DNA from: a virus
Reading direction: 5' to 3' (one strand)
DNA length: 64,000 nucleotides
IMG/VR virus record: IMGVR_UViG_3300010224_000001
Coordinates: 64,001 to 128,000 of that record
Part shown: positions 59,043 through 60,722 of the stretch, one piece after another
Layout: each line of letters begins with the position of its first letter
Numbering within the stretch: position 1 is the stretch's first letter
Notes under the pieces: model-generated
Told to the model about the DNA's origin: nothing
Databases searched by the model: none
The model's input: the letters and a program-made list of their open reading frames with translations, nothing else
Position numbers and translations under genes: made by a program

Positions 59043-60722
59043 ATGTCGAGACTCGTAAAACGGCTTCGGCGTGAACCTACAACGCCGGGCATAAAGGCAG
59101 GTCAACAGATCTTTAACTCACCGGGTGCATACCAGCCGAAGTTTGGTAAGGTTAAGGTCTACGTATCAGGACGCGGTGAGAGTGGTAACTCACCTACTCC
59201 TGGTACAATTGCTAACTACAATCCGCCAACCCCAGGCAATTATGTTAGTACGAACCCTTCATCGGGTGGCACCTACGCAGGAACCAATCCGAGCACGGGT
59301 GGCAATTACGCAAATACGAATCCAAGTACTGGCGGTAATATCGTTGGGTATAACTCACCCACTCCCGGTAACTACGCTGGTACTAATCCGCCTACTGCTG
59401 GTAATGTTGCTGGTTACAATCCGGCGTCACCTGGTTACACAGTAACGACACCTGGTAACTATGTTCCAGGTAATCCTTACACGAACCCGTATTACTCACC
59501 AGCGGTGCCAGGGACTGCGTATTACAATCCTTCGATTACTACACCTGGTTATTACGTAGCGCCTTCGTATCAAGAGCTGAACATTGCTATGACACAGACG
59601 TGTCCGGTAGGTTGGGTGACTGGGTATGACTATGACGACAACGGTCATCCGTTTAAAGTCTGTGATGTGTATACAGCAGGATATACCAACACCCCAACCA
59701 CAACACCAGGCAATTACGCAGGTACTAACCCGACAACCCCTGCTGTGTATTATCCTGGTAATTATAACCCTGGTACTTACACTCCGGGTAATTACGTTCC
59801 GGGCACATCCAATCCTGGCACGTATAGTCCAGGTAACGCCAATACCGCTTATAGTAACCAAGGAACGTATACGCCAGGTAACTATGTAGCGGCAACGAAT
59901 AATCCTGGAACATACACCCCTGGTAATACCAATACGGCGTACACGGCTCCTGGTAACACCGTTCCAGGCTATCAAGATGTAATGGATGGTACGGCAGCAG
60001 GTGCGTGTCCAGCTGGATGGACAACTTGGACAACGTGGCAAGCTGATGGTGCAGAAGGTCCGTTCTTAACGTGCACGATTACGTATAGCCCTTACACGAA
60101 TCCGCCGACGTATGTGCCTGCATCGACTAACCCTGGTACGTATACACCGGGGAATACGAATACAGCATATACCAACAACGGCAGTTATACGCCTGGTAAC
60201 TATGTTGCGTCGTACACCAACCCGGCAACATACACACCTGGGAATACGAATACAGGTTATACTAACCCAGGTACATACACACCTGGAAATATTACGGGCG
60301 CTTACACCAATCCTTCTACGGTGTATTATCAGTCAGGTACACCTGGTTATGCCAACTATAACCCGAGTACGCCAGGTAATATGTATTACAACCCGACAAC
60401 TCCTGGTACGGCTATTTATAGCCCGACTGTTCCTGGCACCGCCAATTACAATCCAGTGGTTCCGGGGAATGCATTCTATAACCCGATTGTTCCGGGGACT
60501 GCTAATTATAATCCAGCAACTCCTGGTACAGCGAATTATAATCCTACGATTCCTGGTAACGTAGGTAGAACATACTCCACGCTTGGAGTCACCTTCCCTG
60601 GCGGACCTGTGGGGCAACCTGCGCCGCAAGTGGGTGACACCTTAACCACGATTGCTTACTCAAATACTGCAGTGCCTGTTGAAGTGCGCTACGGTGGAGT
60701 GGTTATCGTCAAAGAACAATAA
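59043..60722 (+). CDS. Pro/Gly/Asn/Thr/Tyr repeat protein, putative fibre adhesin
   Basis: 559 aa with 11-, 15- and 10-residue PG..NP repeats and two CPxGW...C modules; follows the fibre gene. Confidence 0.75.
   Translation: MSRLVKRLRREPTTPGIKAGQQIFNSPGAYQPKFGKVKVYVSGRGESGNSPTPGTIANYNPPTPGNYVSTNPSSGGTYAGTNPSTGGNYANTNPSTGGNIVGYNSPTPGNYAGTNPPTAGNVAGYNPASPGYTVTTPGNYVPGNPYTNPYYSPAVPGTAYYNPSITTPGYYVAPSYQELNIAMTQTCPVGWVTGYDYDDNGHPFKVCDVYTAGYTNTPTTTPGNYAGTNPTTPAVYYPGNYNPGTYTPGNYVPGTSNPGTYSPGNANTAYSNQGTYTPGNYVAATNNPGTYTPGNTNTAYTAPGNTVPGYQDVMDGTAAGACPAGWTTWTTWQADGAEGPFLTCTITYSPYTNPPTYVPASTNPGTYTPGNTNTAYTNNGSYTPGNYVASYTNPATYTPGNTNTGYTNPGTYTPGNITGAYTNPSTVYYQSGTPGYANYNPSTPGNMYYNPTTPGTAIYSPTVPGTANYNPVVPGNAFYNPIVPGTANYNPATPGTANYNPTIPGNVGRTYSTLGVTFPGGPVGQPAPQVGDTLTTIAYSNTAVPVEVRYGGVVIVKEQ
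59199..60551 (+). repeat. Intragenic degenerate tandem repeats (33-, 45- and 30-nt periods)
   Basis: 7 x PGNYAGTNPxT-type (59199-59429), central PGNxxxxYTNPGTYT-type 15-mers, 7 x PGTANYNPxx-type (60342-60551). Confidence 0.85.

Follow-up and report, generated by a model that had tools for sequence, protein, structure and literature searches.

Host range in phages is decided by receptor-binding proteins, and little is known of the ones that jumbo phages carry. For the needle of T4 gp37, a structure study reportedly found that each chain extends to the distal end and then returns, the receptor-binding tip being where it turns. The triple beta-spiral shafts of adenovirus and reovirus fibers are built on a 15-residue pseudo-repeat. 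The gp37 needle (PDB 2XGF) is a trimer with seven iron sites, as described in the available excerpt of PMC6957217. Adhesins of the gp38 type are modular and monomeric in the excerpted text of PMC12032242, and polyglycine-II helices in a sandwich are reported for gp38 in the available part of PMC9608196. The same part of that source describes Pam3 gp24 (PDB 7YPX), where the strands of a TNF-like sandwich continue into six out-and-back loops at a spacing of about 5 A, with variable distal tips that are thought to bind the receptor. The Pam3 protein forms trimers, has an N-terminal helical shaft and needs a Tfa-like chaperone, and its glycine-rich domain is 39% Gly, with GGGGxGG-like motifs packed in a lattice (PMC9608196, same excerpt).

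The stretch analyzed here, called the window, is 64,000 nucleotides of DNA from an uncultured 322-kb jumbo phage (IMG/VR record IMGVR_UViG_3300010224_000001, positions 64,001 to 128,000). It carries a gene for a 559-aa repeat protein, and the best reading of the evidence as a whole, which we hold to be reasonably probable, is a distal tail-fiber protein that most likely acts as a receptor-binding adhesin. The stalk-and-knob family to which the protein belongs would be an unannotated kind of tail-fiber tip protein, without a Pfam, PHROG or PDB relative in the searches made. The ORF at 59043..60722 on the + strand starts with ATG and is a real gene by ORF call and homologs; the start codon call is taken to be correct because the N terminus MSRLVKRLRRE is common to homolog P0001. 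The parts of the protein and its neighboring genes are collected in Table 1.

Table 1. Parts of the stalk-and-knob gene and neighboring genes in the window; residue numbers are those of the 559-aa protein.
Feature	Coordinates	Strand	Basis or remark
Whole gene, stalk-and-knob protein, 559 aa (stop codon included in span)	59043..60722	+	ORF, ATG start, homologs
Basic N-terminal peptide, res 1-18, MSRLVKRLRRE.T..	59043..59096	+	Conserved; candidate docking peptide
Base beta-sandwich, N-terminal half, res 19-53	59097..59201	+	AF2 pLDDT 90-98; also in homolog P0098
Root stalk outgoing, seven 11-residue repeats, res 54-130	59202..59432	+	G-N-Y-A-G-T-N-P-x-x-G/P
Arm 1 outgoing, res 131-176, irregular PG/NP units	59433..59570	+	Sequence; no lag above shuffle maximum
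Tip module 1, res 177-212, C187...C207, CPVGWVTGYDYDDNGHPFKVC	59571..59678	+	Module comparison, AF2 beta-hairpin
Arm 1 returning, res 213-238	59679..59756	+	Sequence; boundary inferred
Arm 2 outgoing, res 239-310, four 15-mers at 242-301	59757..59972	+	Lag 15 = 0.54, lag 30 = 0.59
Tip module 2, res 311-352, C322...C344, CPAGWTTWTTWQADGAEGPFLTC	59973..60098	+	Module comparison; AF2 strands 327-330, 342-345
Arm 2 returning, res 353-434, four 15-mers at 363-422	60099..60344	+	Lag 15 = 0.52, lag 30 = 0.60
Root stalk returning, seven 10-residue repeats, res 435-504	60345..60554	+	G-T/N-A-x-Y-N-P-x-x-P
Base beta-sandwich, C-terminal half, res 505-559, ...LGVTFPGG...GGVVIVKEQ	60555..60719	+	AF2 pLDDT 95-98
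Upstream fiber/adaptor gene, 413 aa; C-terminal ~110 aa phrog_9017 'tail fiber protein'	57785..59026	+	
2OG-Fe(II) oxygenase, PF13640, prolyl-hydroxylase-like	60763..61398	+	Candidate modifier of X-Pro-Gly repeats; substrate inferred
Two DUF6065-like paralogs, 61408-62307 and 62314-63099	61408..63099	+	Conserved cassette
Tail-fiber-assembly-chaperone-like (Tfa-like) gene, 151 aa	63096..63551	+	phrog_4912, PF16778
Second adaptor gene, start (353 aa in full)	63651..64000	+	Second stalk-knob paralog, 520 aa, follows beyond window

The protein is rich in T, P, G, N and Y and has few hydrophobic residues. It contains 75 Gly (13%), 37 periodically placed Pro-Gly dipeptides, one His in 559 residues and exactly four Cys (187, 207, 322 and 344). 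The repeats follow the consensus G-N-x-x-x-(T/Y)-N-P-x-x-(P/G), and the repeat signal is strongest at lags of 10, 11 and 15 residues and at multiples of these, with no period of 3. A collagen triple helix was rejected for the missing (G-X-Y)n period of 3, a gp37-type iron needle for the single His, and a poly-Gly lattice for the 13% Gly.

An initial annotation of this DNA had described seven 11-residue repeats on the N side facing exactly seven 10-residue repeats on the C side. Both sets are found (residues 54-130 and 435-504), with an identity of 0.53 at lag 11 and 0.65 at lag 10, where 500 shuffles reach 0.34-0.36 at most. The second arm was said to hold about four 15-mers per side that alternate between YV and TNT types, and these too are present at 242-301 and 363-422 (lag-15 identity 0.52-0.54), as GNYV and GN(T/A)NT units alternating on the way out and on the way back. 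The broader picture of two arms, each with outgoing repeats, a tip and returning repeats, stands for both Cys-bracketed tips and for the arm 2 repeats; it needs correcting for arm 1, which is irregular. A lag scan of arm 1 against shuffles gave no lag above the shuffle maximum, and with the boundaries originally drawn its sides measure about 46 residues out and 26-31 back. As a matter of arithmetic, and not as a test, the arm 1 lengths equalize only with a root stalk about 1.5 units longer.

The four Cys bracket two tip modules that are paralogous to each other and share the pattern CPxGW...PFxxC. Tip module 1 is modeled by AF2 as a beta-hairpin (191-197/203-209, pLDDT ~81-84), and the module is also found in P0188 (twice), P0189 and P0204. 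Across family members the arms and the root share 10/11-mer units, and two or three arms occur in the 559-aa protein, PAR2, P0002, P0005, P0031, P0188 and P0189. At the DNA level the returning 10-mers form a diverged array of period 30/60 with 65-68% matches, while homologs at 30-50% identity keep the exact periods and have G, N, N-P and Y at unchanging positions. That periods and positions are retained while the DNA repeats have diverged speaks for a regular structure maintained by selection.

The two ends of the protein come together in the models. With a 71-sequence alignment as input, AF2 puts residues ~20-60 and ~490-559 into one beta-sandwich with pLDDT >90, the N-terminal half contributing strands 20-24, 28-30 and 39-44; G515 and G520 are invariant in the 71 sequences. 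The same base is formed in the 176-aa homolog P0098 (60 sequences) by residues 11-50 and 120-176, with pLDDT >95. Since the two termini make one base domain, the ~440-450 residues between them constitute an out-and-back insertion, and the modeling strongly indicates that the ~450-residue insert is a single excursion that exits and re-enters at the same site of the base. The proposal that the repeat region is inserted in a base domain is thus borne out by the joining of the termini in two AF2 models. Preceding the base is an N-terminal peptide with the family consensus M.L...L.REKTN, for which AF2 gives a short helix at residues 5-8 (pLDDT ~59) and which may serve as a docking peptide.

The termini had also been likened to the two halves of one Gly-rich adhesin domain; the single domain is upheld by AF2, but the likeness to Gly-rich adhesins is weak, with a best Z of 5.2-5.3. 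In the VIA fold search the top or joint-top match of the base is Pam3 gp24 (7ypx_A, Z 5.3, rmsd 2.2 A over 70 residues, 17% identity), and the base of P0098 matches the same protein with Z 5.2 over 77 residues. Other weak matches, at Z 4-5, are to trimeric jelly rolls of the TNF, C1q, Pgp3, BclA and PRD1-P5 types. All of these Z values lie below the level that VIA calls informative and are too low to claim homology. Foldseek gave no match at E<=0.001 against PDB or against BFVD; among the 50 BFVD matches listed, nine are named 'Glycine-rich domain-containing protein', none at E<=0.001.

The stalks themselves are poorly modeled. AF2 pLDDT is <50 at residues 67-184, 212-300 and 348-488 of the 559-aa protein and 43-54 in the two-rung stalk of P0098, and the ESM Atlas (ESMFold) model of the sequence has a pLDDT of 0.39, with structure neighbors at TM 0.14-0.28 by query, which are meaningless. 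With the stalks at low confidence, AF2 and ESMFold show neither antiparallel stalk pairing nor a solenoid. Low stalk pLDDT is also expected of a disordered region. This is a clear instance in which AlphaFold2 and ESMFold do not cope with a sequence that is both conserved and strongly periodic.

The family is large and metagenomic. At least 204 cluster representatives were found at E<=1e-3, the best with E 7e-102, and no cultured phage in a collection of 50,697 phage records carries the gene; tblastn of the 559-aa protein and P0098 against these records gave no match, with a low-complexity filter on that may cause misses. The 559-aa protein has no Pfam family at E<=1, the glycine-rich domain families included, and no PHROG match. 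Among 71 members searched at E<=0.01, the only Pfam hits were Extensin_1 (2 members) and Pro-rich (1 member), and eight short members searched at E<=10 had none. Sequence searches of PDB with the protein and with its profile returned only a lipoprotein at chance level (E 3.9), and megablast of window positions 52000-64000 had no match. Among the papers listed in literature searches, none is by title or abstract on a stalk-and-knob family or on a fiber-modifying hydroxylase; repeat motifs are not searchable as text.

The two sides of the insert can be compared across the family. Among 115 members that carry both base motifs, the N-side and C-side runs are equal in 53 and within one unit in 96 (Spearman 0.73), against permutation values (10,000) of 15.1 on average and 31 at most for equal runs and 39.1 and 56 for runs within one. 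Where both runs have at least two units (69/115), 35 members are equal and 60 are within one. A parser-free measure gives the same picture: in the 33 members with exactly two Cys, the distances from base to first Cys and from second Cys to base correlate with a Spearman of 0.87, and the out/back ratio has a median of 1.11, or about 11:10; the tip sits at the 11:10-scaled midpoint of the insert. This ratio falls between 0.8 and 1.4 in 27/33 (permutation mean 15.9, max 25). Of 28 independent sister pairs, 20 differ, and the changes on the two sides agree within one unit in 17/20 (Spearman of differences 0.64); unfiltered, the sister pairs show weak covariation (r=0.28, p=0.06), and a parser that merges gaps, which ran on into the tips and made the counts noisier, gives r=0.26 (p=0.08). 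Co-variation of N- and C-side repeat counts among homologs, which the initial annotation had named as a check on its folded-back chain, thus comes out in its favor, with 96/115 within one and the tip at the 11:10 midpoint. These counts strongly indicate that the outgoing and returning halves are kept matched across the family. Overall, the observation made in the initial annotation is confirmed, and its interpretation is supported in part: on the base, the insertion and the co-variation, though not on antiparallel pairing, the Y shape or the monomeric state.

Unit lengths on the two sides are also related. Counting rungs from the base, 139/172 are 11:10 pairs, a strong indication from the repeat sequences that 11-mers usually face 10-mers across the two sides. 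This arrangement can be reversed: P0018, P0076 and P0237 have outgoing 10-mers and returning 11-mers, and the out/back ratio is 0.91 in P0018 and P0090, which run 10-mers out and 11-mers back. An 11-mer stands opposite an outgoing 10-mer in 11/36 cases and opposite an outgoing 11-mer in 8/136, a complementarity that is driven by few proteins (P=0.06 in a within-protein shuffle of unit types). Mutual information at the level of rungs is only slightly higher than in shuffles, of which 17/1000 attain the same value, and shifting the register by -1 gives an equally high score.

The insert evolves differently from the base. It is the more diverged part in 28/28 sister pairs (mean identity 0.54 vs 0.88), its length changes too, and it holds 155/161 of the Cys; the Cys count is even in 108/115 members. 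A conserved base with an insert that diverges and changes in length is the pattern of a conserved dock with variable host-contact parts.

The genomic setting is that of a tail-fiber module, with fiber, baseplate and chaperone genes around all three paralogs of the 322-kb genome and in 13 related viral loci. The stalk-knob gene has a baseplate spike/PAAR pair to one side and fiber/chaperone genes to the other, the flanking genes being the spike (phrog_3216), PAAR (PF05488), a fiber-like adaptor (phrog_9017, 2163, 13857) and the Tfa-like gene. Each paralog follows a fiber gene with a phrog_9017-type C terminus. In the 13 loci, which include near-duplicates (L010/L011, L012/L013 and L016/L018), the adaptor C-domain is upstream of the stalk-knob gene in 13/13, and the oxygenase, DUF6065a, DUF6065b and Tfa genes follow downstream in this order in 12/13; the 13th locus ends inside the gene. 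The oxygenase, 40 nt downstream, matches PF13640 and, in PDB, PKHD-type hydroxylases and prolyl 4-hydroxylase 5c5t (E 1.6e-5). Features of a P4H substrate are present in the 37 PG dipeptides and the adjacent syntenic PF13640 oxygenase.

The matched repeats can also be read as part of a conventional trimeric fiber tip, in which TNF/C1q-like bases associate and the outgoing and returning repeats of three chains intertwine into a six-stranded shaft, as reportedly in the T4 gp37 needle. We regard this as unlikely while giving it some weight, as an out-and-back trimer fits the matched counts equally well and the best base matches, weak as they are, are to trimers (Pam3 gp24, Z 5.2-5.3; TNF/C1q-type jelly rolls, Z 4-5). 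Moreover, Pam3 gp24 is a trimer that needs a Tfa-like chaperone (PMC9608196, available part), and the cassette includes a Tfa-like gene. What tells against three chains is that members with two or three arms cannot put all of their arms on one three-fold axis, and that root and arms are built of common 10/11-mer units, which favors a single mode of pairing within the chain. With its one His the protein lacks the HxH iron sites of the gp37 needle, and every fold Z is below the VIA informative level. The monomeric rather than trimeric state put forward in the initial annotation is a proposal, as is the Y shape of the stalk; the weak base matches are mostly to trimeric domains.

Two further readings dispense with an extended, paired stalk. 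The repeats might be unpaired and act as flexible tethers, full of Pro-Gly and Asn-Pro turns and either elastomer-like or disordered, that space the knobs from the base, and the very low confidence of AF2 and ESMFold in all stalk segments agrees with this, as does a composition rich in T, P, G, N and Y with few hydrophobics. We think it improbable, as tethers offer no reason for matched counts, for 10-mers facing 11-mers or for a tip at the 11:10 midpoint of inserts of ~90-300 residues, and at 30-50% identity the proteins still keep the exact periods and the positions of G, N, N-P and Y while the DNA repeats have diverged. Very improbable in our judgment is a compact lattice or two-layer sandwich atop the base, like the glycine-rich-motif lattice of Pam3 gp24, S16 gp38 and ALK. 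A sandwich of an N-side and a C-side sheet would also need equal counts, and the closest fold match is Pam3 gp24, whose sandwich strands extend into stacked loops (PMC9608196, as excerpted); nine of the 50 BFVD matches listed bear the 'Glycine-rich domain-containing protein' name, none at E<=0.001. Set against this are a Gly content of 13% vs the 39% reported for the Pam3 domain, the absence of a GGGGxGG-type motif, the lack of any Pfam match at E<=10 in the eight short members searched, and odd repeat numbers per side (7, 5, 3), which misfit an up-down meander within one side.

In the preferred reading of a receptor-binding fiber tip, the outgoing and returning halves would pair antiparallel into a rung-by-rung stalk, which in the 559-aa protein would split into two sub-hairpins, each presumably capped by a disulfide-closed CPxGW...PFxxC knob. 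The two Cys-bracketed knobs probably bind the host. The base and the basic N-terminal peptide would probably dock onto the phrog_9017-type C-terminal domain of the upstream fiber protein, by analogy with gp38 capping gp37. The many X-Pro-Gly sites are probable targets of hydroxylation by the co-travelling prolyl-hydroxylase-like oxygenase, and the co-encoded Tfa-like chaperone probably aids folding. A more tentative possibility, which we find doubtful rather than likely, is that the stalk is a new protein fiber: one chain with two-stranded antiparallel stems in which an 11-residue unit specifically pairs a 10-residue unit, so that stems could be extended, shortened, inverted and branched like RNA helices to carry one to three exchangeable knobs on one small dock. 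The stems of such a fiber could be two-start beta-helices, intertwined and with ~21 residues to each turn. They might need prolyl hydroxylation by the oxygenase to fold, which would explain the failure of the predictors.

The family offers an unusually legible design rule of matched out/back repeats, 11:10 pairing and a conserved dock with one to three knobs. Should the pairing hold true, this would be a modular protein rod that can be tuned in length and branched, and it would interest those engineering fibers or looking for new folds. The constant companions, the oxygenase and the two DUF6065-like proteins, would suggest that a phage tail fiber is modified enzymatically.

No fiber-shaft match in fold or sequence emerged from the VIA fold search and the PDB sequence search; arm 2 has the period of 15 known from the triple beta-spiral, but the root has periods of 10 and 11. 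Like the T4 gp37 needle, the 559-aa protein appears to be an out-and-back chain with its tip at the turn; unlike that obligate trimer with His-coordinated iron, it has one His, may branch and has a split base. It resembles collagen-type prolyl 4-hydroxylase substrates in its periodic Pro-Gly sites and in the cognate-type enzyme encoded 40 nt downstream, and differs from collagen in its periods of 10, 11 and 15 rather than a G-X-Y triplet. With Pam3 gp24, as far as the available excerpt of PMC9608196 describes it, it shares a small beta-sandwich base, an out-and-back excursion, variable distal tips and a Tfa-like gene nearby, the out-and-back plan with a variable distal tip being seen here in sequence statistics (midpoint tip; 28/28 pairs) instead of a structure. 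Where Pam3 gp24 has six short poly-Gly loops, the 559-aa protein has a single giant loop, nested and built from G-N...N-P...P repeats 10, 11 and 15 residues long; it is without a helical shaft and has no sequence or Pfam relation to Pam3 gp24. No sequence similarity to gp38-type adhesins was found by tblastn against the 50,697 phage records or by the PDB sequence search. Like gp38 of Salmonella phage S16, T2 and PP01, the 559-aa protein is a small separate protein encoded beside a distal fiber gene, it would cap the fiber tip, and it combines conserved scaffolding repeats with variable segments that would contact the receptor. The proposed nested hairpins, the Cys-bracketed knobs and the companion oxygenase set it apart from gp38, which has none of them.

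The 559-aa stalk-knob protein fits best among the distal tail-fibre adhesins in which a small beta-sandwich carries variable loops that run out and back. Its ORF starts 16 nt past the stop codon of a co-oriented gene upstream, and the product is rich in Thr (17%), Pro (14%), Gly (13%), Asn (12%) and Tyr (11%), with four Cys and a single His. The anatomy proposed in the initial annotation, i.e., seven 11-mers answered by seven 10-mers, the 15-mers of arm 2 and two tips, is correct by sequence and by repeat-lag identity, which at 0.52-0.65 lies far above the shuffle maximum of 0.34-0.36 (500 shuffles per segment). 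Its picture of two arms with repeats out and back is weakest at arm 1 (residues 131-176 out, ~213-238 back), which has no significant period and unequal sides. At the DNA level the C-side array alone is detectable, and weakly (period 30/60, 65-68% matches), so the repeats are old and kept at the protein level and do not reflect recent slippage.

Features of the stalk-knob protein and of the fibre loci in the same genome (residues are those of the 559-aa protein; L023 is the viral locus at G000:301000-314000, G000 being the whole record)
Feature	Position	Strand	Remark
Stalk-knob gene, 559 aa	window 59043-60722	+	ATG-started ORF
Root outgoing repeats, seven 11-mers	residues 54-130		from sequence
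Root returning repeats, seven 10-mers	residues 435-504		from sequence
Arm 2 outgoing, four 15-mers	residues 242-301		GNYV and GN(T/A)NT types alternating
Arm 2 returning, four 15-mers	residues 363-422		GNYV and GN(T/A)NT types alternating
Knob motif of tip module 1	window 59601-59663 (residues 187-207)		bracketed by C187/C207
Tip module 2			bracketed by C322/C344; paralogous to tip module 1
Baseplate spike-like gene (phrog_3216, 300 aa), then directly PAAR-motif protein (PF05488, 86 aa)	window 55243-56417		upstream
Fibre-like adaptor, 413 aa			upstream of stalk-knob gene, after spike and PAAR
PF13640 2OG-Fe(II) oxygenase, two DUF6065-like paralogs, Tfa-like chaperone	window 60763-63551		downstream cassette
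Second adaptor, 353 aa, then second stalk-knob paralog, 520 aa			paralog just beyond window end
Third stalk-knob paralog, 361 aa	L023 6100-7185	-	180 kb away
Fibre, 1142 aa	L023 7237-10668	-	C-terminus matches phrog_9017; precedes third paralog
Tfa-like protein, 319 aa	L023 5116-6078	-	after third paralog
Enoyl-CoA-hydratase-like protein, 156 aa (phrog_1128)	L023 4642-5115	-	same fibre cluster

The virus record, of which the window covers bases 64001-128000, has 322,570 bp with terminal repeats and is rated complete. A neighbouring gene finds its best cultured relatives (30-41% identical) among Burkholderia, Xanthomonas, Ralstonia and Pseudomonas jumbo phages with genomes of 230-320 kb. The spike-like and PAAR genes form a tail-tip puncturing pair that adjoins the fibre module.

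The protein has 59 relatives at 90% clustering. At 50% clustering the representatives number 204, of which 70 reach E<=1e-10 and 19 reach E<=1e-30, and a search from the single-arm member P0004 gained further members. Neither the protein itself nor any of 71 members scanned singly gave a meaningful match to Pfam or PHROGs; the members' Pfam matches were Extensin_1 in two and Pro-rich in one, and PHROGs gave none. Eight short members had no Pfam match even at E<=10, PDB sequences held no relative by protein or by profile, and no record matched in a 50,697-record phage collection searched with the low-complexity filter on. Member lengths run from 176 to 916 aa, and all members share ~50 residues at each end (M.L...L.REKTN...TFNAPG.Y.PPYGK......G.G..GN and LGVTFPGG....AP.....Y...G.P..VP.GGYV.I), between which lies an insert of one to three arms, each built as repeat-tip-repeat. 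The related locus L009 carries longer versions in two matching operon slots (1311-4061 and 8001-10136; 916 and 711 aa), each with two Cys-bracketed knobs; syntenic orthologs thus differ in how long and how many their arms are.

The conserved ends are where structure prediction is confident. For the 559-aa protein, AlphaFold2 with a 71-row alignment reached a mean pLDDT of 53, with 90-98 for residues 21-60 and 501-559, which form ten beta-strands; the 176-aa homolog P0098 (60 rows) gave 91-98 for residues 11-50 and 120-176. Both models support well the earlier claim that the termini are two halves of one domain. The chain therefore exits a small beta-sandwich ~55 residues in and returns to it ~65 before the end, and the modelled reading of the ~440-residue repeat region as a topologically out-and-back insertion in a split base is well supported.

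How the outgoing and returning halves relate is a question on which the models are silent, since both AlphaFold2 models score the stalk below pLDDT 50, even the two-rung stalk of P0098, and the ESM Atlas model of the exact sequence has a pLDDT of 0.39. Homologs are more informative. Units of 10 and 11 residues were read with a simple scoring parser in those proteins that have both base motifs, 115 of the 242 collected. The runs next to the N-base and next to the C-base had the same count in 53 proteins and differed by at most one in 96 (Spearman 0.73), against permutation means of 15.1 and 39.1 and maxima of 31 and 56 (10,000 permutations); the first 65 proteins gave 28 and 54. The co-variation of repeat counts set beforehand as a check is thus seen across homologs, but the control for relatedness, using greedy, non-overlapping sister pairs, is mixed. 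All 46 pairs gave r=0.28 (p=0.06), and a gap-merging parser gave r=0.26 (p=0.08). Restriction to 69 proteins with both runs of at least two units left 28 pairs, with Spearman 0.64 (p 2e-4) and Pearson 0.39 (p 0.04) for the differences; among the 20 differing pairs, the two sides changed equally in 7 and within one unit in 17. Clean cases are P0004/P0010 (7:7 to 8:8, in 10-mer-type units), P0014/P0023 (10:10 to 9:9), P0112/P0237 (4:4 to 6:6), P0018/P0090 (10:9 to 7:6) and P0063/P0219 (6:6 to 2:2). In the two large outliers one run was read short by the strict parser, and the N-side run of P0196 again has 11 units under the gap-merging parser.

The most convincing pairing test is parser-free. 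In the 33 members with exactly two Cys, both within the insert, the length between N-base and first Cys tracks the length between second Cys and C-base (Spearman 0.87), with a median ratio of 1.11, or ~11/10, and 27 ratios within 0.8-1.4 (permutation mean 15.9, maximum 25). A two-armed paralog, PAR2, departs most clearly, as expected. N-side runs consist largely of 11-mers and C-side runs largely of 10-mers, and 11:10 pairs make up 139 of 172 base-anchored rungs in 35 equal-count proteins. Outgoing 10-mers meet returning 11-mers in P0018 (BaaaaaaaBa out, BaBBBBBBB back, where a is a 10-mer and B an 11-mer), P0076 (BaaaaB, aaBBBBa) and P0237 (Baaaaa, BBBBBa), and in the inverted-type P0018 and P0090 the Cys-to-base ratio is 0.91, or ~10/11. 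An 11-mer lies opposite 11 of 36 outgoing 10-mers vs 8 of 136 outgoing 11-mers (Fisher p 2e-4, the rows being related), and a within-protein shuffle gave P=0.06 only. Mutual information between rungs is a weak signal, 16.63 in antiparallel order vs 15.37 +/- 0.59 when shuffled (reached by 17 of 1000 shuffles), 15.33 in parallel order and 16.85 at a register shift of -1. Taken together, these results indicate that selection holds the outgoing and returning halves in step, one unit against one unit, on either side of a tip at the turn, as antiparallel pairing predicts and unpaired tethers do not; such pairing, as read from sequences, is supported by comparative statistics.

Cys counts are even in 108 of the 115 members (none in 56, two in 34, four in 18) and the insert holds 155 of 161 Cys, which together support disulfide-closed knobs as a likely reading. 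The tip 1 motif CPVGW.T.YDYDDNGHPFKVC recurs almost unchanged in P0188 (twice), P0189 and P0204 of other phages, with variants in P0061 and P0062, and is nearly invariant between phages and between arms. AlphaFold2 models tip 1 as a beta-hairpin (pLDDT ~81-84), and its acidic DYDDNG loop resembles a turn that may bind metal or sugar. Tips of other members are unrelated and often Cys-free. In every one of 28 sister pairs, divergence is greater in the insert than in the base (mean identity 0.54 vs 0.88), and the insert often differs in length; bases 96-100% identical can carry inserts 38-79% identical. Judged by sequence, the family pattern is a conserved dock with variable distal parts. In P0208/P0226, P0206/P0236 and P0072/P0114, bases 96-100% identical carry inserts 38-77% identical and 46-62 residues apart in length, which suggests that the insert has recently exchanged cassettes or gained and lost repeats.

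At obvious boundaries arm 1 has 46 residues out vs ~26-31 back, and arm 2 ~73 vs ~90. With the root assumed to pair 11:10 and the arms 1:1, the segments of 123, 104 and 160 residues set by the tips yield a root of ~94:85 residues, arms of ~29 and ~75, and junctions near residues 148, 237 and 420. Three equations in three unknowns give consistency, not proof. The protein would be Y-shaped, and it may be a monomer or a trimer.

The surrounding cassette is conserved. An adaptor C-terminal domain (phrog_9017 type) lies upstream in all 13 related IMG/VR loci, which include near-duplicates, and is directly adjacent in 12; at L017 (5565-8001) it is 2.1 kb upstream of the matched gene, and the stretch between them may hold a second, tandem stalk-knob gene. 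The downstream order oxygenase, DUF6065a, DUF6065b, Tfa recurs in 12 loci, L014 ending inside the stalk-knob gene, and the stalk-knob proteins are just 34-62% identical to the queries that found them. Because solved relatives of the oxygenase are PKHD-type hydroxylases and a prolyl 4-hydroxylase, and the protein has 37 Pro-Gly sites, it is reasonable to infer that the repeats are hydroxylated by the cassette enzyme. Such modification could be why structure predictors fail. For the DUF6065-like protein at window 61408-62307, tblastn gave relatives of 27-32% identity in 55 phage records, most of them from haloarchaeal tailed viruses and a few from cyanophages. In Halovirus HSTV-2 (KC117376.1) the gene has thymidylate synthase and DNA polymerase as neighbours instead of fibre genes, and it may therefore serve a role that is not confined to fibres.

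The protein would be expected to dock and to bind a receptor, and there is a real chance that its stalk represents a new fibre fold. The base gives weak fold matches (best Z 5.2-5.3), with the Pam3 cyanophage fibre gp24 (7ypx_A, 17% identity) first or joint first in both searches, followed at Z 4-5 by TNF, C1q, BAFF, APRIL, Pgp3, BclA and PRD1-P5 jelly rolls. Foldseek against PDB and BFVD returned nothing at E<=0.001; among the 50 weak BFVD matches listed, nine are named 'Glycine-rich domain-containing protein'. The suggestion that the base is a Gly-rich phage adhesin domain keeps this weak likeness, but neither Gly-rich motifs nor a profile match is present, so membership with Pam3 gp24 is not established. 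The Pam3 fibre is described as a TNF-like sandwich from which the strands run on into six glycine-rich loops, out and back, whose distal tips vary; the design resembles S16 gp38 and ALK (PMC9608196). The Pam3-type fibre is the nearest known design to the 559-aa protein.
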